NCBI GenBank assembly: GCA_000091205.1
Contig: AP006495.2
Source: Cyanidioschyzon merolae
Lineage: Eukaryota
Strand: one strand, 5' to 3'
DNA length: 64,000 bases
In this document: piece by piece, positions 10,375 through 59,060 of the stretch
How positions within the stretch are numbered: position 1 is the stretch's first letter
Layout: each line of letters begins with the position of its first letter
Notes under the pieces: generated by a model
Seen by the model: the letters and a program-made list of their open reading frames with translations, nothing else
What the model was told of the DNA's origin: nothing
The model's database searches: none
Translations under genes and position numbers: made by a program

Positions 10375-10870
10375 GCTGAGGTATGGACATGGAGGTCGGG
10401 GATCCTGCAGGGCTGGTGTCCCCGGATGTTTGCGAAAAAACGACAGAAAAAATCCTCTTCCCTCCGGCCGTCGACAGAAGACGAGCAAGTGGCGACGACG
10501 AAGAAGAACAGGGCAGATGGGCGAAAAATGGTGTTTGCCCCACGAGACGATGCCGCAACTGTATTGGAAAAGAGGGCAGGAGTTCGAGGACTCCTTGCAT
10601 GGGTGCGCTCCACCAGATGCAATACATGCAAGGAGTTCCTGAACCGGGCCTTCAGCGCCGCCATCAATATCAGATGATGTGTGGTGCTGAAGACGAGACC
10701 CGAGGGGCTGAAGCGATCCAACTTTGTAGTGCAGTCTCTGATGCTCGAAGCGTACAAAGAGAAGCTGGAATCGATAGTAGACGCCCTGTCGACAAAGACT
10801 GGGACGTGTCTCCGGGTGGGTATTCATTTACCCCACATGTTCGTTGGGCAGTTTTTGTTTCACTGATCAG
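10375..10870 (+). mobile_element. 5'-truncated 3' fragment of a TnpB/Fanzor-like element (copy A)
   Basis: ...RAGVRGLLAWVRST...KEFLNRAFSAAINIR* at 10426-10677. This is followed by a conserved tail (MVLKTRPEGLKRSNFVVQ...YKEKLESIV) shared with copies at 28.2, 41.7, 52.4 and 58.8 kb. A 1-nt indel shifts frame relative to copy C. Confidence 0.6.
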
Positions 10871-19574: not shown

Positions 19575-21117
19575 CATAGCAGACATACATGGAACGGGCC
19601 CACAGCGCTCAATCGGGCGTACACACGAAATGCGGAGCATCTCGTATTTGTCATGAACAAATGACCCGGTAGGCCTCTTCCGACACAGCGTACTTGCTCT
19701 CGTTCGCACCTCGGGATTTTTGGACACGCCAGTCTCTCTGGACCCCGCAGTTCCACGGTCTCCCGTCGAAGGATGCTCGTGGCAGCGCCCGAGTCCCGAT
19801 CTCACAGCTGCCGGCTGTTGTCGATGCAGTTCATCCACCGGCGAGACTTGCAATCCATGCTTCGCTTGCCAGCTTCGTCTTCTTCGAATACAGCGCCGAT
19901 GCGCTTTGCGCAGCGGTCGCACTCGACTGCTGTTGTCGGGTATCCCACATGTCCAGCGCACACCCGTCACCGAGTGCAGCGCTGTGCGGCGTGAAGGACT
20001 CCTCCAGTGCTCGGTGCACGCCCCTGACGAGTACAGAAGGCGTCGCTCGATGCCGTGCTCCGTTGCCGCGCCCGGTACCGTACACTGTCGTCACGAACTT
20101 GTTCAGGGCGATCCCCTCGGCGAGTACGCTGTCCGCGGCAGACGCAAGCGAAGGCTTCTGCATTACGCAGAGGATCTGTGAAACGCGGTGCTGTCCGTGA
20201 TAGAGCACGGAGCAGACGGAAGCTTCACACTCGAGAAGTCGTCGACATACTCCGAGCCGTTTCCGATCCCTGGTTGCAAAGCGGTGACACAGGCTCCGCT
20301 GGAAGCGAGTGCCGGGAGAGCTGGTATCCGAGTCCGAGACCGAGCACCCATGGACGGGCAGGAGCCGAGCACCCGTGGACGGGCAGGAGCCGAGCACCCA
20401 TGGACGGGCAGGAGCCGAGCACCCATGGACGGGCAGGAGCCGAGCACCCGTGGACGGGCAGGAGCCGAGCACCCGTGGACGGGCAGGAGCCGAGCACCCA
20501 TGGACGGGCAGGAGCCGAGCACCCATGGACGTCCGTGCCCTGTGGGGTACCGTGCTTGCGTCGAACGCCGTCTCAGCGGTGTTAGCAAGGAGCCGGGCGA
20601 TATGTCTCCTCGGCCGAGTTCGACGCTCTGACTTGCGAAGTACGGTGAGCGATCGGCTCGAGCTTGTGAGCAAGTCGTTAACGGACGGCGTCGACGAACG
20701 TTCCGAAAGCGTCCAGGTGCTTGAGGTGGCGCGCCCACTGGGTTGCCTCGGAATAGCAAGATCGAAAACCTGAAGATTGGATACTCGGAGCGGGCTGCAA
20801 GTGAAGATAGAAGAAGAGAGGCGTCTAGCGCGTATGCATACAACGGTAGTATCGATTCGTTTACGATGCCTTGTTCGCGGGTGTCCCGAATCGTCTCGAT
20901 TCTGGTGACGTAACGAGTTGCAGCGGCACATCGTTGAACGTGTCGCTCCGCGAGAAAGAAGAACCACCGACCTAGAATCCTGAGAGTGTATACGAATCCG
21001 TAAGCATTTTATTGGTGCTCCATGAAAGTCAGCGCTTTGCATCTGAACAAGTTCAGAGGGAAATCTAAATGCAGGAACAGGGTGTGCAGTTCTTTTGTAG
21101 ACTTATATCTGACGCGG
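19575..21117. repeat. Segmental duplication, copy 1 (about 1.54 kb, direct orientation)
   Basis: Near-identical to 26608-28175, with a few SNPs and one extra 25-bp unit in copy 2. The coordinate offset is 7033 before the minisatellite and 7058 after it. Divergence points were read directly at both ends. Confidence 0.9.
20338..20530. repeat. 25-bp minisatellite, about 7.7 units (ccgagcaccc[a/g]tggacgggcaggag)
   Basis: Direct reading. Because 25 is not a multiple of 3, all three frames give a 25-aa periodic pseudo-peptide (EHPWTGRSRAPMDGQEPSTHGRAGA), explaining the overlapping ORFs. Confidence 0.9.
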
Positions 21118-26607: not shown

Positions 26608-28175
26608 CATATCAGACATACATGGAACGGGCCCACAGCGCTCAATCGGGCGTACACACGAAATGCGGAGCATCTCGTATTTGTCATGAACAAATGACCC
26701 GGTAGGCCTCTTCCGACACAGCGTACTTGCTCTCGTTCGCACCTCGGGATTTTTGGACACGCCAGTCTCTCTGGACCCCGCAGTTCCACGGTCTCCCGTC
26801 GAAGGATGCTCGTGGCAGCGCCCGAGTCCCGATCTCACAGCTGCCGGCTGTTGTCGATGCAGTTCATCCACAGGCGAGACTTGCAATCCATGCTTCGCTT
26901 GCCAGCTTCGTCTTCTTCGAATACAGCGCCGATGCGCTTTGCGCAGCGGTCGCACTCGACTGCTGTTGACGGGTACGCCACATGTCCAGCGCACACCCGT
27001 CACCGAGTGCAGCGCTGTGCGGCGTGAAGGACTCCTCCAGTGCTCGGTGCACGCCCCTGACGAGTACAGAAGGCGTCGCTCGATGCCGTGCTCCGTTGCC
27101 GCGCCCGGTACCGTACACTGTCGTCACGAACTTGTTCAGGGCGATCCCCTCGGCGAGTACGCTGTCCGCGGCAGACGCAAGCGAAGGCTTCTGCATTACG
27201 CAGAGGATCTGTGAAACGCGGTGCTGTCCGTGATAGAGCACGGAGCAGACGGAAGCTTCACACTCGAGAAGTCGTCGACATACTCCGAGCCGTTTCCGAT
27301 CCCTGGTTGCAAAGCGGTGACACAGGCTCCGCTGGAAGCGAGTGCCGGGAGAGCTGGTATCCGAGTCCGAGACCGAGCACCCATGGACGGGCAGGAGCCG
27401 AGCACCCGTGGACGGGCAGGAGCCGAGCACCCGTGGACGGGCAGGAGCCGAGCACCCGTGGACGGGCAGGAGCCGAGCACCCGTGGACGGGCAGGAGCCG
27501 AGCACCCGTGGACGGGCAGGAGCCGAGCACCCATGGACGGGCAGGAGCCGAGCACCCATGGACGGGCAGGAGCCGAGCACCCCTGGACGTCCGTGCCCTG
27601 TGGGGTACCGTGCTTGCGTCGAACGCCGTCTCAGCGGTGTTAGCAAGGAGCCGGGCGATATGTCTCCTCGGCCGAGTTCGACGCTCTGACTTGCGAAGTA
27701 CGGTGAGCGATCGGCTCGAGCTTGTGAGCAAGTCGTTAACGGACGGCGTCGACGAACGTTCCGAAAGCGTCCAGGTGCTTGAGGTGGCGCGCCCACTGGG
27801 TTGCCTCGGAATAGCAAGGTCGAAAACCTGAAGATTGGATACTCGGAGCGGGCTGCAAGTGAAGATAGAAGAAGAGAGGCGTCTAGCGCGTATGCATACA
27901 ACGGTAGTATCGATTCGTTTACGATGCCTTGTTCGCGGGTGTCCCGAATCGTCTCGATTCTGGTGACGTAACGAGTTGCAGCGGCACATCGTTGAACGTG
28001 TCGCTCCGCGAGAAAGAAGAACCACCGACCTAGAATCCTGAGAGTGTATACGAATCCGTAAGCATTTTATTGGTGCTCCATGAAAGTCAGCGCTTTGCAT
28101 CTGAACAAGTTCAGAGGGAAATCTAAATGCAGGAACAGGGTGTGCAGTTCTTTTGTAGACTTATATCTGACGCGG
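26608..28175. repeat. Segmental duplication, copy 2 (about 1.57 kb)
   Basis: See copy 1. Its right end directly abuts the TnpB/Fanzor-like fragment B. Confidence 0.9.
27370..27590. repeat. 25-bp minisatellite, about 8.7 units (one unit more than in copy 1)
   Basis: Direct reading. The A/G variant pattern differs between the arrays (copy 1: a,g,a,a,g,g,a,a; copy 2: a,g,g,g,g,g,a,a). Confidence 0.9.
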
Positions 28176-30027: not shown

Positions 30028-31200
30028 TCAATGGAAACGATTTGTTATTGGAAGAAAATCCGTCCCACGCTTGGGCGCAGCGATGGACATGGTATCCTTC
30101 CTCCCTGGGTCCACGCTGACGACAACGTCGTTCACCTGTACTCCATACATCGCGGGGCCCGCCTCTTTCTTTTCATGCTTCGTCATAGGCGACAGCGAAG
30201 ACAGAATAGGACGAGCCACCCTCAAGCGCCAGCAGTGAACGCACATGGATATTCCGTATCGCGTTCGATCGTTCACGTGAATGCCTTTTTCTTTCTCGTG
30301 TCGAGCCGTTCCGAAACGAGGACATTCTTTCAATACGTTTCCCGCTTTTCGCCTGTGAACTCCGTGCTGCTTACATCGGACCCGGACTTGTCTCCTTCAT
30401 GATGCCGTAAAGGACTCTGGAGTTGATGGTCCCAAAGTGTGACTTGATGTTGGATGACGCAGCGACGTCAAAGCGCTTCTCCAGAAGCGCAACCTTCCGT
30501 TTCACCGAATCTGCATCATTATTTTCAACAATATCCATATTCGTCTTGCGTTCGAGCTCTCGGTTCGAAAACACGAAACAGAGCAGAATAAGGGGATAAC
30601 ATCTTTTTTCATATCCGATGCCTTTTCTGCATGGTTGACCAGCCCCAGAACCGCGCAATGCTCTTGAATAGCTGTATGGATCACAGAATCGTCATTCGTG
30701 ATACTGTGAGACGTATCGTCGTTGACGGAATCAGTTTTGCCTTCATCCCGACGATCGTTCATGATGCCATTGATACTGGCCCATATCTCTTCTTGGGAGA
30801 GAGGCCTGGTTAGAGCGCAAAGCCGGAGCGTATCATGAAGTGTTTGAGGTTCATGGTGAATACGGTTCTTCAGATTCGTGAGGTACTTCGTCGCCCCGTG
30901 TCCGCAAATACGCGAGTCAAGCCTGTATCGAGAACCGCTGGAGCGGTATTCGACGTAATCTTCGTGGAGGCGTGTACTCCCTCATTTCTCCTCAGCGTTT
31001 CCACTGTTCAAACCATAAGGTGGCCGATAAAGGTCGAGCTGACAAAGTCTCCCGGAATATCAACTGTCTGGCTGTGCTTGACGTCGTCCAGCATCTCCTT
31101 CACCAAATGCTGTAGTCATGAAGAAATCTTTTTCATACTCGTGCAGCAGGACGCGAAACGGTTTCTGATAGCCTCCCGCAAATTTTGCATGTAGGAACCC
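30028..31200 (-). pseudogene. Degenerate copy of the N-terminal (REC to RuvC-I) half of the TnpB/Fanzor-like gene (copy F)
   Basis: Minus-strand frames give VKVYLHGLIKGSYMQNLREAIRN (vs [23 protein letters not shown] in copy D). They also give NSVIHTAIQEHCAVLGLVN..., ...NRELERK...KSHFGTINSRVLYGI..., and ...VNDVVVSVDPGRKDTMSIAAPKRG (the RuvC-I-like VDPG). Frameshifts are present. Confidence 0.6.
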
Positions 31201-40083: not shown

Positions 40084-41283
40084 TCATTCCAACTTGAACA
40101 GAATCTTTCCCTTTCGATTCGGGGCAAACTGTGCCCGAAAAGCATCCTCATACTGTTCGAGTGTATATTCTTGCTCAACTTGCGGTCGCATATCACCTTT
40201 GCGAATCATTTCAAACGTTTCCTCGAAAATCGTCGGCTTCTGGTTCTTCAACCAAGTTGTAAGCGAGAAACCGCGGACAACGATGCCCTTAAAGATCAGA
40301 TCACTGTTCATGACACACGTCGGTTTGCCGCTCTGCAGCCCGTATGCCATGAAAAGGCCGCCCGGGGAGAGCGCTGCCAGCGCAGCCGAGCCCATCTCGC
40401 CGCCAACAGCGTCAACGACGGCAGCGAGCCCGCGTCCATTCGTTATCGCGTTGAGACGCTCGGCGAGGTTCGGCTCCTCGCCAAAAACGATCACCTCGTC
40501 TGCCCCGAGCTGTTTCAGTTCCGCAACAGATGCTTTCGATCGCACAAAGTTCACCGTGCACAAGCCCCGCTTTTTCGCCAGCTGGATGAACATACGACCG
40601 AGAGTCGAGTTCGCCGCTGTCTGTCCGATCCACGGGTTGCCGTGAACCGGCGCCTCCGCTTCGATCTGCTCCAACATGCCGACCACGGTCAGCGGATTCA
40701 CTATCAATTGAGCGGCCTCTTTATCACCGATATCCTGTGGTACTTTGATACAGAGGTTTTCGTCCACCACGAGGTACTGTTGCCAGCAGCCCGAGCGATC
40801 CGCAAGTGTTGGAATCACACGCGTCCCGACAGGAAGCGAGGTCGCTGGACCTTGCGCCACAACTTCTCCGACACCCTCGAGGCCGCCAACAAACCCAGGA
40901 CGACGTTCGCGCACTGCGGCTACCCCAGGGTACACGCCTTGGACGACAAACACGTCGGCAGGATGGAGGCATGCATACCGCATCTTCACGAGCACCTGAC
41001 CCGGACCAGGCTTCGGGACAGAAGCAGTGGTGTTCAACCTAAGTGCTCCCTTCAGCGGATCGCCAAAACTTACAATTTCCAGAGCTTTCTGCGTTGACGG
41101 TATATGTGTTGCCATAGAGTCTGCAAATCGGTTGCGTCTTCCAGCAACGACACCGCCAGGCCTGTGTCTGGAATCAATTTTGGGGCAGGGAGTGCGCACA
41201 TCAGGCTGGCCGCGTCCACCCGCCACACCTGGACCCGTGCCGCGGTATGCGAATGAATCTGGACTGTGGGAGGCAGCGTGCAT
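40084..41283 (-). CDS. Trans-2-enoyl-CoA reductase (MECR/Etr1-type MDR-family oxidoreductase), probably mitochondrial
   Basis: MRYACLHPADVFVVQGVYPG resembles Etr1 (NPADINQIQGVYP). The MDR-type zinc-ADH fold runs throughout. The true start is more likely the internal Met at about 41115 (MATHIPSTQKALEI...), because the upstream part of the ORF overlaps the Fanzor-like fragment C on the other strand. Confidence 0.7.
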   Translation of the reverse strand: MHAASHSPDSFAYRGTGPGVAGGRGQPDVRTPCPKIDSRHRPGGVVAGRRNRFADSMATHIPSTQKALEIVSFGDPLKGALRLNTTASVPKPGPGQVLVKMRYACLHPADVFVVQGVYPGVAAVRERRPGFVGGLEGVGEVVAQGPATSLPVGTRVIPTLADRSGCWQQYLVVDENLCIKVPQDIGDKEAAQLIVNPLTVVGMLEQIEAEAPVHGNPWIGQTAANSTLGRMFIQLAKKRGLCTVNFVRSKASVAELKQLGADEVIVFGEEPNLAERLNAITNGRGLAAVVDAVGGEMGSAALAALSPGGLFMAYGLQSGKPTCVMNSDLIFKGIVVRGFSLTTWLKNQKPTIFEETFEMIRKGDMRPQVEQEYTLEQYEDAFRAQFAPNRKGKILFKLE

Positions 41284-41925
41284 TCGTCAACTTTTTCAAT
41301 CAGTTGAGCGCCTTGAAGGAGGATCAAAGTCAGAGGCTCGTAGTAGCGTACGGAGCAGGGCGCTGGAAGACCCAAAAAGGGACGAGGCCAGCTCCAACGA
41401 CAAGAATGTATGAGGCGTGCACACGGCGTTTCGTTACGATACCGATAGATGAGTTCCGAATATCCTATACACACCATGAACTGGGATGCACACTTCAGAG
41501 GGTCGAGATGGAAACGTGCCAACGGAGCCCTGAGGATATAAAAAAGCACGGACCGCTGACGGAAGAGCAAATGGAAAGGAGGGCGAAAGTTCGTGCATTG
41601 CTTGCACTAGTGAGTACAACCAATGATAGTAAGAAACGTATGGAGTTCGTGAATCGTGACTTTAATCCTGCTATCAATATAAGGAAATGTGTGGTGCTGG
41701 AGACGAGACCTCCAGAGTAGACAAGAGAGAATTTTACTGGACAACCTCTCAAGGTTGAATCATATGAGAAAAAGCTGGAAGCAGTAGTGGGTGACCCGTC
41801 GAACAAGGCCGCGAGGCGTCTGCACATCAGTTGGTGACTTCTTGTCTAGGGCGCGGTTTCTCGCCACTACTGCACACCGCCGGCGACGTCGTTCGACTGC
41901 GAGAGGCGTTCGGCGGTGTACGAGG
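41150..41925 (+). mobile_element. 5'-truncated TnpB/Fanzor-like fragment (copy C), carrying the RuvC-II-like segment, the zinc-finger region, RuvC-III and the 3' tail
   Basis: ...RQRAFVNFFNQLSALKEDQSQRLVVAYGAGRW...TRMYEACTRRFVTIPIDEFRISYTHHELGCTLQRVEMETCQRSPEDI...RRAKVRALLALVSTT...KRMEFVNRDFNPAINIRKCVVLETRPPE*. The tail is conserved with copy D up to about 41900. Confidence 0.65.
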
Positions 41926-44900
41926 GGTGTGTGCTTTAAACGCCAAGCTTGTTTCGCTGCTTTTTTTTTGAAAACTCGACCATCGCTGGGACCCAGCACT
42001 GGCAAGGATCAATGCCGTGTGTCTGCGAACGCTCTGTCCTCTAAAAGTTCGTGGTTTCGTCTGGAAATCCAAACGAGCTTCCGTCACGGGCGGGGAACGT
42101 GTCACTCGCTTCGAAGAGGTGAACGCCGTGAACCAGAGGACGGAAAACGGTGCAAGCTTCCTATGGGAGGCGCTTTCGCTGCATACGCCATGACTCAGGC
42201 GCTCATTCTTCCCGGGAGCTCTGCTTTTATCAAAATACCACCGTACGCGAACAACCGCACGACCAGTACGTACTCGAATGGAGCAAGCTGCGTTGCCAGT
42301 CGCCGCCACTGTCGGTTTTTGGGAGCCGGCTCAGGCCGGAGCCGCGCCTTGACTGCGTTTCTGGTGAAGCAGCAGTGCTGTCGCTGCGTCGACAGTTTGC
42401 GGCGCGCACAGACAGCTAAGCGCTCACCTGGTGTCGCTGCGATCCGTCTCGCGACCGAGTCCCCGGAACAGGACCCTGTTCTTGACTGGCTCCGCAAAGA
42501 GCTCAACGACGAGCAGTTTGCAGCCGCGACGGCGCCCGTTGACGCTCCAGTTTTGGTGATGGCTGGCCCCGGATCAGGCAAGACGCGGGTTCTCACTTAC
42601 CGAATGGTGTACCTCATCATCAAAGAACTCTTCAGGGCAAGGCACTTATTGGCGGTTACGTTCACGAACAAGGCTGCTGATGAGATGCGAGCACGCGTGA
42701 TCGACCTACTAAAGTCGCGACAAGGCACCGAAGTGGAATCCTCGCACAGCGTTCCCACTGTTGGTACGATTCATTCGGCCTGTTCGCGCATCTTGCATCG
42801 GTTTGGCGCAGTCATGGGCATTAGCTCCAAGTTTAACATCTATTCCGAGTCGGATGCTAAGCGGCTGCTGCACAGGATCCTCGAAGAAAATGGCGAAACG
42901 ATGATTGACCCGAAGAAGATTGCGTTGTTCGCCGCGCTTCTCTCCGAGATGAAGCAGGAACAATTTTGCGCGGAGTTTGGTTACGAGCCGTCGCCCTCTA
43001 GGTCGCCGGCCTATGATGCTCGTGGCATCACTGCATACATGGTGGAACGCGCCAAAACCCTCCTTCCGGTGTACCAGTCGGAGCTGCGACGGCTTGGGGC
43101 ACTCGACTTTGATGATTTGATCCTGGAGGCGGGACGCCTGCTTCGGAATCACCCGGCCATTCGTCTGGAGCTCCAGAAGCAATGGCAATACATCATGGTA
43201 GATGAGACTCAGGACACCAGCCAAGCTCAGTATCATGTAATTCGATTACTGGCTGAAAGAAAACGTGAAACAGAGAAGTATTTCCCGTTGTTTCTTGTGG
43301 GTGATCCCGACCAAAGTATCTATGGATGGCGCGGGGCGGACATGCACGCTGTTCGGCGTTTTCGGGATTCGCTACCGGAAACCCGTGTCTACCTATTAGA
43401 GAACAATTACCGCTCGACGAAAGCAATTGGAGATCTAGCACAATACGTCATACAACAGGATCGTGAACGGATACATCCAGAGAAACGCATGCGTACGCAG
43501 CTAGAGGGCGAACATCCCGTTCGCTTGGTCTTTTGTAGGAACAGCAAGTCGGAAGCTGAATTCGTGGTCAAGCAAATTCGAGAACTCGTCGCACGCCACA
43601 AGCTCTCTGGTCGAGATATCGCCATCATGTACCGAACAAACGTTCAAAGCCGTACGCTCGAGGAAGCCTGCATACATGCCGGTGTGCCGTACGTCTTGGT
43701 TGGCGGTCTGCCCTTCTACGAGCGGCGCGAGGTCGCAGACATGCTGGCCTGTTTGAAGCTGCTCCTCCACGAGGGCGATACAGCAAGCTTTGAACGGGTA
43801 TTGAGCTTTGCGGTCTCCGGCATTGGCAAACGAACGACCGCCGCATTGTACGAATGGGCGAAACACCTGAACTGCACACCGATCGCGGCACTTCGGGCGC
43901 TCAGCAATGTCGATGCGGATACACCAATCGTTTCCAAAGCGATACCGAGCGTACCGCGCTCGCTGCCCGTGCATGAAACCCCAGCGGTGGACGAAAACGC
44001 CTCCAACGGAACCCGGGGTGCAGCTGAACTCGAGACTACCCCGACTTTGACCGATGAACAGGTGGCCATGCTGGGTGTCACTTCGCGGAAACGCAAAATC
44101 TTGCTCAAGTTTTTGGAGATGTATGAGCGGTGGAAGAGATTACTGCGAACACCTGTGGCCGAGATGAGCCGCAGGTATTATGTGCTTCCACTCATGATTA
44201 AGACAATTTTCGCAGACACGCAATACGAGGAATACGTCCGCAAGCAAGCGCTCCACGGACCCGCTGTCAATGAGGAGACCAGCGCTCTTCGCGTCCAGGA
44301 GCGTCTAGAGAACGTCGTTGAACTCGCACGAGCCGCCTCCACAGCCGAGGAGCTCTGCCTGAAGAGGGGTGCTCAAACGGCCGGCGACGTTCTCGTGACC
44401 TTTCTGCATGAGGTTGCACTTGTGCATGGCGCTAACCGCGACGAGAACACCCCGAAAGATGCATTCGGCTGTGTGAATCTCATGACGCTGCACGCGAGCA
44501 AAGGTCTTGAATTCGAAGCAGTTTTCATCGTTGGTATGACGGAAAGTCTTCTGCCACACAAGCTGTGTCGTACCCGAGAGTCACAGATCGCGGAGGAAAG
44601 GCGGCTGGCATATGTCGGCTTGACTCGCGCCAAGCGCCACCTGACAATCACCTGGTACCCAAATGGCTCCGAATGGCTCTCCCGGTTCCTCCTGGATGCA
44701 CCTGACGAACTCGTCAGTCGACACTGCGCCCGGGATCTGATGAAAGGTCGCCTGGACCCCATTCCACGTGAAGAATATACGCTGCGGTGCAAGCAAGCAC
44801 ACGCGGGCAGCAAGGAGCCGGTACGCATCGGTGACATAGACGTACTGGGAGAAGTGAAGGCCAGGAGCAGGGCGGCGGAATCGAAACGAGCACGTGTCCA

Positions 44901-52405: not shown

Positions 52406-53327
52406 TCAGCTCGATGATGGGGCAAACTTCGCACGAACCAGCAAGAAACGCCGTTCTAAAGTAGAACGTCGTCGGCGGTGTACAGTAGTAGCGACCGGTG
52501 CGCCTTGGACACCAAGTCGCCTACTGACGTGCAGACGCTTCCTAGGCTTTTTCGACCGGCCGCCTACTACTGCTTCCAATTGTGTCTCATATAGTAAAAC
52601 CTTAAGAGGTTGTCCAACAAAATTCTCGCGTGTCATCTCTGGAGGTCTCGTCTCCAACACCGCACATCTCCTTATATTGATGGCGGTAATAAAATCTCGG
52701 TTCACAAAATCCATCCGTTTCGTGCCGTTGGGAGTTGTACTTACTAATGCAAGCAGTCCACGAACTTTCGCTCTCCTTTCCATTTGCTCTTCCGTCAGCT
52801 GTCTATACTTTGCTATATCCTCAGGGCTCCTCTGGCACTTTTCCATCTCGACTCTCTGAAGTGTTAACCCCTGTTCATGGTGTGTGTGCTATGTTCGAAA
52901 CTCAACTACAGGTATCGTAACGAAACGCCTTGCACACTCCTTGTACATTCTTGTCGTTGGAGCTGGTGTAGTGCCTTTCTTGGGCACCCATCGTCCTGCT
53001 CCGTACGCTACGACGAGCCTCTGACTTTCCTCCTCCTTCAGGGCGCTCAACTCATTCAAAAAATTCGCGAACGCCCGCTGCCTCCCACCGTATAGATTCA
53101 TTCGCAAACGAGCCCACGGGGGTTGGTATACTCCTCCCATAGCGCATCCCGGTGCGCCATATGCGAACTTCCATGAATTTCCGGACAGCTCCAAAGTCCG
53201 CTCCTCGGCTCGTCACCTTACTCAAAGCTTCCGGGCGATCCTTCATTCCTGCATTCCGTTTCTCGATTTTCTTCCTCGCATTCATGATTCCCGATTCTCG
53301 ATAGTATCTCGCTCTCGAGATCCTCAA
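52406..53327 (-). pseudogene. Frameshifted C-terminal half of the Fanzor/TnpB-like protein (RuvC-II-like, zinc-finger, RuvC-III and C-terminal tail)
   Basis: Three different minus-strand frames (ORFs 53052..53327, 52889..53194, 52406..52846) are needed to read it. Together they are homologous to copy C. Confidence 0.65.
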
Positions 53328-54703
53328 AAAAGACGCATGTCTTTCTGACGCAAGTTACCATCAGCACCATCTTCCGTACGCTTCGGTGCTACGATGGTTA
53401 TGATATTCGTATTCCCAGGGTCCGCGCCAACGACAAGGTCGTTATCCTGCACTTTCTGCGCGGCAGGATCCTCCTCCTTCTCATCTTTATGCATCGCCGC
53501 GCCAACGACAAAGTCGTTAGCTTGCACCTCCTGCGTCGCAGCATCCTCCTCTTTGTTTTCTTCATGCTTCGCCGCGCCAACGACAAGGTCGTTATCCTGC
53601 GCTTTCTGTGTCGCGGGACCCGCCTCTTTGTTTTCTTCATGCTTCGTGACGGGCGCAGCCGATGGAGGGACTGGACGATCTTTCTTCAACCTCCGATAGT
53701 GCACACACATGGCTACTCCATCGGGTTCGATCAACCCAGTGAATACCTTTTGTTTGCTCACTTTCAGACGTTTGAAATCGAAGATGCTCATCCAGTACGT
53801 CTCCCGGTTTCCGCCGGTGAAGTCCTCCCTGCTAACATCGAACTCCGGACAGATATCCCTCGTGATGCCGTAAAGGATTCTGGAGTTGATAGTCACAAAA
53901 TGTGACTTGATCTTGCACATTGGAACCACGTTGAAGTGCTTCCCCATTAGGACAGCCTTCCGTCTCTCCCACTCTTCCTTTGACTCTTCACTCAGCTTCA
54001 TCTCCGCTTTGCGTTCGAGCTCTCGGTCCAGAAACACAAAATAGCGCAGAACGAGGCGATCGTATCTTTCCCTATCTTTTTTCAACGCTGATATCTTGTC
54101 TGTTGGATTCGCCAGCCCCAGTACCGTACGATGCTCTTCGATAACCGCACGGATGACGGAATTCTCATTCGTGCTCTGGTTTGACTCCTTGTTGTCAACG
54201 AATTCGACCTCATTTCCATAGTTTCGATCGTTCGTGATGCCATTGATAATCGCCCATATTCCTTTGCGAGACAGGCCCCGGTAGAGTGCAAACACGGCGC
54301 GTATCATGAAACGTTCGAGGTTCATTCTGAAATGGTTCTTCAGATTCGTCAGGTACTTCATCGCCCCATATGTGTAGATATCCGCGTCACCCCTGTATTG
54401 GGTACCCTCGAAGAGGAATTCCGCGAAGTTTTCGTGGAGGACTTTCACCCGCTCATTTTCCCTCCGCGCTTCCTCTGTACCAAGCATCAGCTGACGAATA
54501 AAGGTCTTATCGAAAAACTCGTCCGGAATCTCGACCGTTTCCATGTTCGTCACGTAGAGGTACATCTCCTTCACCAAATGCATCAGTCCTGAAGATGCCT
54601 TTATCCTACTCATGGGGTACAACTCGAGAAGGTTTTTGATGGCCTCTCGCAACTTTTCCTTGTACGGATCCTTGATATATTTAAGAACACAGACTTTCAC
54701 CAC
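53324..54703 (-). CDS. Intact 459-aa ORF encoding the N-terminal (REC-like to RuvC-I) portion of the Fanzor/TnpB-like protein
   Basis: Uninterrupted ORF of lower GC. The C-terminal [15 protein letters not shown] matches the TnpB/Fanzor RuvC-I (hGhDxG) pattern. It contains a 3 x 25-aa tandem repeat just upstream of that motif. Confidence 0.65.
53422..53650. repeat. Tandem repeat, 3 x 75 bp, inside the Fanzor-like ORF (encodes [25 protein letters not shown] x 3)
   Basis: The ccgcgccaacgacaa(g/a)gtcgtta.. units start at 53422, 53497 and 53572. Confidence 0.85.
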
Positions 54704-55199
54704 TATCTCGTTGTACAGTTGTCTTTCTTGCCGCCTTCGACGTAGAACCTCCCCCTTTTTGAATCTTCATCACTTCCTGTTCCTCTTTGCTCCGCCTTGT
54801 TTATCTTTTTTTCCGGCAGCGGGTGATATCGGCCCTCCGGGATCCTCCACTTCCATTTCCATGACTTTCCTTTTAATTTTTTGAAAACGAACGCTCTTTG
54901 AACGCTTCTGTTATATACTTCGAAAAAACACTTGAATATACTCAATTGAGGGTCGGAATAGGATGGAACAGAAAACCTATACTTTGCTACGACCTCAACG
55001 CGAATACAACTTTTACAGTAGAATAGCACGCCAATGATCAGGATCACTGTTCCCCTCAAGAGCGACCAGAGCGTCGTGTCTCGTGCCCGCCGGATCTGCC
55101 AGGTGCGCGTGCACGCGCAGCGGCTGACCTGCGCCCCGCCGCCGATCAGGAGATTGCTTCTGGATATGTCTATCTCAAAGCGTGATAACCTGTTGCTGA

Positions 55200-57670: not shown

Positions 57671-58165
57671 TTGTCGACGAATTGCATACGGCATATGTAT
57701 TCTTCACTGAACAATGCAATGATGATTGCATTGCTCCTCGATGTCAACCATACTGCTATACTCAGATGCTTGACGAGCACTGAAAGAAACAAGTATATGC
57801 GCTCCGGGCCGAAACCTGATATTCTCAAAGCCTGCTTGCAATCAGTGATAGAAAACGACCAGTTGATCAATTTAAGGGAAGCAAATGCGTCCATAGTAGC
57901 CACCACGGGCGTCTCTGTTTCTCAACAGCTTATTCGCGTGATCCTGAAAACACCGGGATCCAATCGCAATAAAGTGCTAGTTCATTCACGGCCAGCTTCC
58001 ACCGAAATCGCAGGCACGGTGTTCCTGGAACGTCGCGATCGGTATGAAGCACAGGAACATCAGTTTGTTTTCTCACTCGATGAGACTTGCTTCAAACGAG
58101 ACAATCGCAGTGCAGATGAATACTTGCTGAGCGGGAGCCCGTTGCACGTACGCTCGAAATCGTAG
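57671..58165 (+). pseudogene. Possible fragment of a Tc1/mariner-type (HTH plus DDE_3) transposase
   Basis: An HTH-like segment (REANASIVATTGVSVSQQLIRVILK) is followed by ...QEHQFVFSLDETCF, reminiscent of the Tc1/mariner W..V.FSDES.F block holding the first catalytic Asp. The region is AT-richer and directly adjoins Fanzor-like fragment E. Weak. Confidence 0.3.
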
Positions 58166-58544
58166 AGAACGTCGACATCATCATCTGTTCTAGCTGCGGT
58201 GGATTCATTTGGCTGCCTCAGTTCCGCTGAAGAGAACACTCATGCAGCAGCGCCCTCTTTTTGTCGAGTCATCGAAGACTTGTCCCAAACGTCTGGTGAA
58301 GTCCTTCTATTGGACATAGTGGTATTTAGCCATTCTGCTTCAGTTCGAGCATTTGCCAATTCTATCGACGGGTAGAGCTGGTTTCATTCCTTCTTCTCAC
58401 CTGTGTTTCATTCCCATAGAAGGAGAGTTTTGCGTCCTGAATCGTCACGACCGCTCCACCGGGCGAATAGATGAAGCGTTCAGCACATGGTGACCAACCG
58501 GGGCACATTTGGTCTTTATTCCGCATGTGCTGCTCGATGCGGGA

Positions 58545-59060
58545 AGGTCGTCATCTCAGGCTATAAACAAGTGCGTTCATTTTCGAAAAATCTAAGGGAC
58601 GAGCTGGAATATACACCCTAGGATGTTGAGTTGGAGCGAGGCCAGCGGAGCGTTTCGTCGACGGATCAGCACGAAGAGCTGACAGAGCACCCAATGGCAC
58701 AGCGTGCACGAGTTCGTGGTCTCCTATCATTGGTGAGATCAACCAGCGGCAACAAACGCATGGAGTCCATGAACCGAGACCTCAACGCTGGTATCAATAT
58801 CAGGAGATGCTTGTGCTGAATGCGAGGCACGCAGCGCTGCGGCAAGCTAACTTTGTTGGGCAGCCTCACAGCGTCGGAGTGTATATGGAGAAACTGAAAC
58901 CGATACCAGAACCCTGTAAGAAAAGGCTGAGAGACGTCTGCGGGTGGATATTCATTTACACGATATTGTGGCGAAACGGGTTTGCTGCACTGACGTAACG
59001 TTGTTCGCTTCGGCATTCGCGCTGTTATCTGCTCCCGAGCAAACCGCGAAAAGCAGGCAA
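58545..59060 (+). mobile_element. 5'-truncated TnpB/Fanzor-like fragment (copy E)
   Basis: ...VELERGQRSVSSTDQHEELTEHPMAQRARVRGLLSLVRSTSGNKRMESMNRDLNAGINIRRCLC* is followed by the conserved tail (LVLNARHAALRQANFVGQPHSVGVYMEKLKPIPEP). Confidence 0.6.

Follow-up and report, generated by a model that had tools for sequence, protein, structure and literature searches.

What is the hairpin-bearing sequence that follows a RuvC-like coding remnant at positions 41700-41925 of this 64,000-nucleotide (nt) stretch of Cyanidioschyzon merolae DNA (assembly GCA_000091205.1, contig AP006495.2; the whole stretch is hereafter called the window), and could it be what is left of a guide RNA template? A previous inspection of the nucleotide letters, referred to here as the sequence-only reading, had noted two related copies of this sequence in the window, C on the plus strand and D on the minus strand. 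The flagged interval was interpreted as a conserved 3′ tail of copy C downstream of the RuvC-III motif, providing both the scaffold of an omega-RNA (ωRNA) or Fanzor RNA (fRNA) and the end of a mobile element. In the present analysis, the interval is assigned to the 3′ end of a dead, 5′-truncated copy of CMe-1A, a red-alga transposon encoding the RNA-guided nuclease Fanzor1, and it probably represents the right end of that element together with the relic of an fRNA/ωRNA scaffold template. This assignment is based on four properties that such a template should show and that the tail does show: where it lies, which strand it favours, that it is structured and that its boundary is fixed. Characterised Fanzors derive their fRNA from non-coding sequence 3′ of the gene, next to the right end, and conservation continues into the open reading frame (ORF) (PMC10530073); both they and characterised TnpB systems take the guide from flanking DNA (PMC10432273, PMC10530073).

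The identity of the encoded protein had to be established with a family profile and a structure model, since single-sequence searches of Pfam and PDB with C, D and a reconstructed full-length protein returned nothing beyond a faint PF07282 match at RuvC-III. A profile built from 26 full-length homologues matched the solved Fanzor1 proteins PpFz1 (9cf0, E = 3e-21), SpuFz1 (8gkh, 2.5e-16) and GtFz1 (9cer, 1.3e-7). The AlphaFold model (mean predicted local distance difference test score, pLDDT, 83) is that of a relative, P0165, rather than of C or D; along 95% of its length, this protein aligns with the window family at 41% identity. In Foldseek, the model was most similar to SpuFz (9cez, E = 2e-17, template modelling (TM) scores 0.60/0.70), PpFz and GtFz, and then to Cas12f; TM scores against the three Fanzors ranged from 0.6 to 0.7 at E of about 1e-17, and the WED/REC/RuvC architecture was present. 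In the protein alignment, D421 (GxDPG), E592 (DEFRT) and D659 (NRD) are invariant, the last being the RuvC-III aspartate, conserved in all 26 aligned full-length homologues and lying in the motif where the faint PF07282 match falls. At the canonical RuvC-II position (AYGxG) the glycine is invariant and the glutamate is found 33 residues later, which is the rearranged site described for Fanzors (PMC10530073). Copy C retains the glutamate and the second aspartate without RuvC-I, and copy D has the motifs in a broken frame. By the profile and the model of a relative, the protein of the C/D family is a Fanzor1, in agreement with the TnpB or Fanzor identity implied earlier.

The family itself is almost certainly CMe-1A, the Fanzor1 element of C. 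merolae reported by Bao & Jurka in 2013 (PMC3627910), the match being to the published description and not to a Repbase consensus. The window is nuclear DNA of C. merolae strain 10D: six proteins encoded in it are identical to 10D proteins, the locus tags CMM090C, CMM093C and CMM103C among them. That publication describes about 150 copies, approximately 80% identical to their consensus and about 3 kb long, with no terminal inverted repeats (TIRs) and with undetermined target-site duplications (TSDs) (PMC3627910). The same features are found here: the same host, many copies of an element with Fanzor1 as its only gene, a comparable length, approximately 80% identity (81% between C and D), and no detectable TIR or TSD. 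The 3′ hairpin module and the sharp ...GGTG end presented below are, by contrast, absent from the part of the description available (PMC3627910). Neither the element family nor the fRNA principle is new; the specific tail architecture appears to be undescribed in the literature searched.

Comparison within the window showed that C (41234-41854, plus strand) and D (53120-52500, minus strand) share 81% nucleotide identity and that both have decayed. By tblastn, copy C matches residues 485-678 of the full-length family protein (80%); its lesions are the 5′ truncation and two nonsense codons, at 41718 (TAG) and 41835 (TGA). In copy D, the frame is interrupted by a stop codon at 52891-52889 and is also broken near 53324; the native stop is lost as well, its position (52507-52505) being mutated to CAA. 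Both copies are Fanzor1 members by descent but have no intact ORF; neither is able to make the protein or to be a working system, and whatever system they once formed is a relic because no intact nuclease is encoded by either.

These lesions also redraw the limits of the tail. The sequence-only reading had taken the TAG at 41718 for the end of the gene and 41721-41925 for the tail after the stop, whereas this codon is a nonsense mutation and 41721-41846 is in-frame Fanzor1 coding sequence. Beyond this position the frame of D continues ...LETRPPEMTRENFVGQPLKVLLYETQLEAVVGGRSKKPRKRLHVS..., and every homologue sequence examined that extends beyond it reads through. At the protein level, the C-terminal region of the family is also matched by five other window copies that have diverged much more, four of them reaching into the extension. 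A database search matched 178 proteins, and many of the homologue sequences examined end ...GRRLHVSWRRFV before the stop; the family pattern of the extension is ...TRENFxGQPLKVxxYEKKLEAVVGxxSKKxxRRLHxSWRRFV plus stop, with homologues ending ...RRLHVSWRRFV plus stop. When 49 non-redundant copies were aligned, conservation was lower at third codon positions than at the other two until about codon 240 of 250. The segment 41721-41846 is therefore regarded as coding, given the read-through in D, in the other window copies and in the homologues and this codon-position pattern. Overall, about 60% of the flagged interval (41700-41849) is coding, and the non-coding part is confined to 41850-41919.

From metagenomes, 80 related loci were collected, and their 3′ ends were reduced to 54 non-redundant copies (49 in several analyses). 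The identity between C and D fades after about 41895, and the conservation across the 54 copies runs through the stop codon and drops to background at about 41916-41920 in C (about 52437 in D). The sequence beyond this boundary is unrelated among copies and contains no motif. The boundary is fixed, since conservation ends there across the copies and the flanks are unrelated; it falls precisely where the pairing of a long hairpin ends (...GGUG). The earlier proposal had placed the element end at roughly the right position and had named random variation of the boundary among copies as grounds for rejection; in fact, a sharp end common to about 50 copies was found, and it does not wander. In these copies the tail extends from the native stop (41847 in C) to the boundary (about 41919), the position in which a scaffold is expected. 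What stood of the proposed scaffold-and-end tail is thus its last ~70 nt, which are structured and abut the boundary; the upstream 60% had to be given up as coding sequence.

Three parts follow one another in the ~70-nt non-coding tail (41850-41919): first a small stem-loop, then a linker, CCACUACUGUA, that hardly varies, and lastly a long terminal hairpin with many G·U pairs. Its consensus can be written as UAG-GGCGsG-loop-CsCGCC-ACUACUGUA-CACCGyyGGCG(n)CGUU-(apical stem)-AACGGCGUU(n)GGUG, followed by the flank. No Rfam match was obtained with the region 41000-42300. The inverted repeats reported for copy C exist, one or two nucleotides away from the positions first given for them (41875-41883 and 41913-41921), and the inner palindrome CGACGTCG was found at 41884-41891. 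The hairpin of copy D (CGTTCTA-CTT-TAGAACG) is exactly where it had been reported, at 52468-52452 on the minus strand; it is not a different hairpin, as had been thought, but the same apical stem with one compensated base pair. By an arithmetic estimate, about a dozen 9-bp inverted repeats would be expected by chance in 64 kb; nevertheless, the terminal hairpin is more than a chance repeat because the same hairpin occupies the same place in about 30 of the 49 non-redundant family copies.

Several features of folding point to a structured, strand-asymmetric module. The 75-nt tail of C folds at -37.4 kcal/mol (z = -2.9; 0/200 shuffles as good), and well-kept copies from the metagenomes include L070 (-34.9 kcal/mol, z = -4.5) and L055 (z = -3.7). 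For the hairpin, z-scores reach -5.8 and are below -2 in 22/49 copies. The apical stem exists in three self-complementary versions: the first, CGUUCGA/UCGAACG, is carried by about 14 copies; the second, CGUUCUA/UAGAACG, by D and L045, and four copies show half-changed intermediates; the third, CGUUUUUC/GAAAGRCG, by about 13 copies. Because MAFFT sets the two stem classes in different registers, these were compared by hand; RNAalifold on the raw 50-copy alignment returned 3 pairs only, since the stems are blurred by indels and by copies in decay. Of the 19 consensus pairs, five are G·U. A covariance model (R1) scores 60-74 bits on the sense strand of well-kept copies and 15-24 bits on the antisense strand, with 23 bits at the hairpin of C and 62.8 bits at that of D (52486-52439). 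The minimum free energy is lower for the sense than for the antisense strand in 41/49 copies, a bias that is not seen in genomic flanks. Within the family, 76% of cells are paired, compared with 34-49% for slid partners, and in stem-loop 1 the corresponding values are 80% and 37-65%. The check for covariation requested by the sequence-only reading gave a mixed answer within the family: the overall score is weak, as detailed below, and pairs with changes on both sides number 10 against 6.2 in shuffles (a value reached by 2/500).

More distant relatives provide a clearer picture. Intact homologues (30-41% identity) are mostly located directly downstream of a DDE_3 (Tc1/mariner-type) transposase gene, in elements that end ...GAGTA/TA, where the slash marks the end. 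In six diverse intact relatives, most of which have DDE_3 followed by Fanzor1, the tails from stop to end measure 165-220 nt and fold into four helices, with 88% of cells paired, compared with 34-54% for slid partners, and the covariation score is 0.389 versus 0.256 in shuffles, none of 500 being as high, in tails that are only partly homologous to that of CMe-1A. In addition, the terminal 7 nt (GRGUAUA) of relatives L083-L088 and L094-L096 pair with an internal UAUAUAC about 65 nt upstream, and in L083, L087, L088 and L095 the stop codon is followed by a hairpin and then YYACUG, with stem sequences unrelated to those of CMe-1A. No P1-like helix homologous to P1 of the relatives was found in CMe-1A. 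Judging from these patterns, the tails of intact DDE_3 + Fanzor1 relatives are good candidates for fRNA. CMe-1A has the look of a derived element, one in which transposase and TIR were lost, the proximal tail module was retained and a terminal hairpin was gained, because the relatives carry DDE_3 and the YYACUG hairpin and transposase remnants lie upstream of Fanzor1 in the window.

If the tail is indeed a relic fRNA scaffold, its role in active members of the family can be outlined as follows. The tail, probably with the last 100-250 nt of the ORF, would be transcribed on the sense strand and supply the 3′ portion of the fRNA/ωRNA scaffold to which Fanzor1 binds. By analogy with Fanzor and TnpB, the guide would be read from the ~20 nt of flank just past the hairpin; no relatedness is seen between the 3′ flanks of different copies, which is what guides would lead one to expect. 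The terminal hairpin may also mark the end for whatever mobilises the element. Within the coding region, a perfect 6-bp hairpin near the RuvC-III motif falls in a block of 15 codons in which third positions are as conserved as first and second positions (ratio 0.99), which is only suggestive of an upstream scaffold part or an RNA constraint overlapping the ORF. It was also observed that CCACUACUG in the linker (41864-41872) is the exact complement of CAGTAGTGG in the ORF (41782-41790, codons CAGUAGUGG), about 80 nt upstream. The equivalent segments in D are 52572-52563 and 52492-52483, with a compensated change from G-C to A-U in D and from A-U to U-A in L012. This ORF-linker pairing was set aside, as many copies have an A·C mismatch and distant relatives have no counterpart.

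Several observations weigh against the assignment of the tail as an fRNA scaffold. Sense transcription, processing and nuclease binding of the tail would follow by analogy with characterised systems, and the strand bias in folding bears on them only indirectly; moreover, a single-stranded top-strand DNA hairpin used in transposition would give the same asymmetry, and some ORF windows also fold better on the sense strand. The fold of the D tail is unremarkable (-20.4 kcal/mol, z = -0.45), and the apical stem of C has decayed. Covariation in the terminal hairpin is weak within the family, with a score not above shuffles (313/500), and that of stem-loop 1 is likewise not above shuffles, though its sequence is conserved. 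The copies descend from a few master lineages, so the stem variants represent 2-3 independent events and the p-values of the strand bias are inflated. The non-coding tail of CMe-1A is short (about 70 nt, versus 165-220 nt in the relatives). Finally, a 5′ end, TIRs, a TSD and a target-adjacent motif (TAM) were searched for among the copies, and none could be defined.

Among the alternatives, it is rather unlikely that the terminal hairpin is solely a DNA-level transposition signal, recognised by a transposase or an HUH-type enzyme as at the ends of IS200/IS605 or Helitron elements, with no role as RNA. Such a signal would account for a hairpin lying exactly at the element end in about 50 copies, for a family lacking TIRs (PMC3627910 and the TIR search here), and for the existence of one ORF-less copy of the tail (L071, L053, L069). 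Imperfect hairpins with G·T pairs on one strand also suit recognition of single-stranded DNA, and DNA folding parameters favour the top strand in 38/49 copies. However, the family has no HUH/Y1 enzyme associated with it, DDE_3 and TA-flanked ends are what the relatives use, neither a CTRR end nor an A/T insertion site occurs in the flanks, and the tails of the relatives show RNA-type covariation between the stop codon and the TIR. Besides, the right-end hairpin of IS200/IS605 elements is both a DNA signal and an ωRNA template, and as the same hairpin can do both jobs, a DNA signal does not exclude an fRNA scaffold.

Neutral inheritance and a plain untranslated region (UTR) role are less likely still as explanations of the tail. 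A functionless tail, whose copies resemble one another through a recent common master and whose hairpins were inherited by chance, would fit the pseudogene decay of most copies, family covariation scores that do not exceed shuffles, and an identity to the consensus of 0.72-0.87 in the tail versus 0.8-0.95 in the ORF, that is, no more conservation in the tail than in the ORF. We nonetheless consider it very improbable, in view of the three self-complementary apical stem versions with half-changed intermediates, the strong sense/antisense asymmetry produced by five conserved G·U pairs, the hairpin + YYACUG kept in relatives of about 41% identity with unrelated stem sequences, and the covariation in the relatives' tails. 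Equally doubtful is a 3′-UTR element of the Fanzor1 messenger RNA, acting in 3′-end formation or stability and unrelated to a guide RNA: the tail does begin at the stop codon and is strand-specific and structured, yet its end is exactly that of the transposon, whereas a poly(A) site would vary, and nothing in the data favours a UTR role over the fRNA arrangement established for the family (PMC10530073).

CMe-1A can be set beside several known systems, which it resembles to different degrees. With the Fanzor1 fRNA loci (SpuFz1, GtFz1, PpFz1; MmFNuc, DpFNuc and CrFNuc-1, Jiang et al. 2023), it shares family membership by profile and fold, as well as conserved structured sequence from the 3′ end of the ORF to the right end, with structure that appears to enter the coding region. 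It differs in that CMe-1A is known here from sequence data, the copies in the window are pseudogenes, the non-coding part is only ~70 nt, and, with no TIR, the last 46 nt form a single long hairpin. Like IS200/IS605 TnpB loci, CMe-1A has a nuclease gene followed by an imperfect right-end hairpin, with the guide taken from the flank in the former (PMC10432273); unlike them, it is eukaryotic, lacks TnpA (Y1), and has no conserved target or TAM motif by either end. A hairpin near the 3′ terminus and the lack of TIRs recall Helitrons, whereas the CMe-1A hairpin lies at the very end rather than 10-12 nt before CTRR, and there is no A/T target and no Rep/helicase gene. The DDE_3 + Fanzor1 elements (L083-L096 and the older copies in the window) are similar in having Fanzor1 proteins 30-41% identical and paired 3′-terminal bases; the relatives keep a transposase, 165-220-nt tails and a TIR-like ...GAGTA/TA end, all of which C and D lack. 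Nor do C and D have the hallmarks of Tc1/mariner elements: a DDE_3 gene next to them is lacking, and their 3′ junctions show no TA, whereas the older window copies and the metagenomic relatives do have such features. The coordinates of the features discussed are listed in Table 1; copy C is flanked by an ADH-like gene on one side and a UvrD-like helicase gene on the other.

Table 1. Features of copies C and D in the window, with coordinates counted from its first nucleotide
Feature	Position	Strand	Remarks
Copy C, 3′ fragment of Fanzor1 ORF, pseudogene	41234-41849	+	5′-truncated, ~205 codons, CMe-1A family
RuvC-III motif FVNRDFNPAINI	41646-41681	+	catalytic Asp codon GAC at 41658-41660
ORF-internal perfect 6-bp hairpin CTGGAG-N7-CTCCAG	41697-41715 (D: 52657-52639)	+	RNAalifold, both subfamilies
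Premature TAG in C	41718-41720	+	aligned codon in D is ATG; other window copies and database homologues read through
C-terminal coding extension of Fanzor1 (C: TRENF...RRLHISW-stop-LLV)	41721-41846	+	second nonsense codon TGA at 41835-41837
Native stop TAG	41847-41849	+	family consensus GTC TAG aligns there
Stem-loop 1 (UAGGGCGNG-loop-CNCGCC-A-CUA)	41847-41869	+	folding; begins at stop codon
Near-invariant linker CCACUACUG(Y)A	41864-41874	+	alignments
Terminal long hairpin	41874-41919	+	outer 9-bp stem 41874-41882/41911-41919; apical stem of C partly decayed
Outer 9-bp stem arms in C, ACACCGCCG and its reverse complement CGGCGGTGT	41874-41882 and 41911-41919	+	sequence
Inner palindrome CGACGTCG	41884-41891	+	sequence
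First ~20 nt of flank past the boundary	41920-41940	+	not conserved among copies; candidate guide position by analogy
Copy D, 3′ tail	52437-52507	-	linker GCTACTACTGTA 52492-52481; apical hairpin 52468-52452; end ~52437
Copy D, near full-length Fanzor1 ORF, pseudogene	52517-54706	-	tblastn: residues 1-679

The opposite end of the element and its insertion site are less sharply delimited than the 3′ boundary. Upstream of the region common to all copies, homology splits into at least five different 5′ modules; in group A, a T-rich stretch forms the 5′ boundary, and no motif was seen in the flank there. The sequence-only reading had suggested a comparison of the sequences immediately 3′ of the element ends for a target-site motif; no motif appeared in these flanks, and none adjoins either end. 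Helitron-like (CTRR) and Tc1-like (TA) junctions were also considered and were not seen at the 3′ ends of the copies. A metagenomic orthologue of D (L019) is 93.7% identical over 5.4 kb including flanks and loses homology with the window upstream of about 54953 (L019:1-612), which indicates that strains differ at the 5′ end of D. An ORF-less copy of the tail, about 95 nt long and comprising the last ORF codons and both hairpins, is present in three related loci (L071:834-908, L053:820-897 and L069:815-891), about 700 nt upstream of a Fanzor1 element, and reflects a single ancestral event. It resembles the solo fRNA copies reported in Chlamydomonas (PMC10530073). The possibility that it marks an end shared with the 635-bp TE-N2_CMe was considered; only these three related loci carry the copy, and their homology extends to the locus edges.

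The window also contains older traces of the same group. Five more Fanzor1 fragments were detected, at 10564-10818 (+), 16125-15730 (-), 30969-28253 (-), 39117-38866 (-) and 58517-58905 (+), with 30-53% amino acid identity to the C/D family and with stops or frameshifts in all of them; together with C and D, this makes seven Fanzor1-derived pieces in 64 kb. Remnants of DDE_3 lie directly upstream of three of these older fragments (57689-58487 (+), 32349-31590 (-) and 17893-17126 (-)), in the same gene order as in the intact metagenomic relatives that end ...GAGTA/TA. Upstream of one subgroup of CMe-1A type (L001) lies a weak trace of DDE_3, at an E of 0.011 that falls short of the Pfam cut-off. 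In L001, a DDE_3-like ORF precedes Fanzor1, and weak similarity to it is found in the ORFs of two ~1.1-kb segments of the window, 19575-20689 and 26608-27747; these segments, separated by 7 kb, share 98-99% identity and have 25-nt tandem repeats. Finally, 75-nt (25-amino acid) tandem repeats at 53422-53646 (also 30111-30185), approximately ATQEVEDNDxVVDxTKHEExKEAxP, occupy the linker before RuvC-I of Fanzor1 and vary in number from one family member to another.

Taken together, the earlier observation was partly confirmed and its interpretation partly supported; for the window, what was flagged amounts to the right end of a known repeat, now decayed and mostly coding. If the tail is an fRNA template, C. 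merolae would carry a compact Fanzor1 system with a short scaffold and a precise scaffold-guide junction. The persistence of intact Fanzor1 ORFs in an old, otherwise "non-autonomous" family was already remarked upon by Bao & Jurka (PMC3627910). A bolder scenario, which we regard as improbable, is that CMe-1A descends from a DDE_3 + Fanzor1 element, lost the transposase and the TIRs, exchanged its right end for a G·U-rich terminal hairpin, and may spread with Fanzor1 as its sole protein, either via fRNA-guided cleavage of empty sites and homology-directed copying or via a hairpin-dependent single-strand route. C. merolae is a heat- and acid-tolerant, genetically tractable alga with efficient homologous recombination. 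With an fRNA template in an element family that has no transposase of its own, the question of what Fanzor does for its transposon would become testable in a simple genome.

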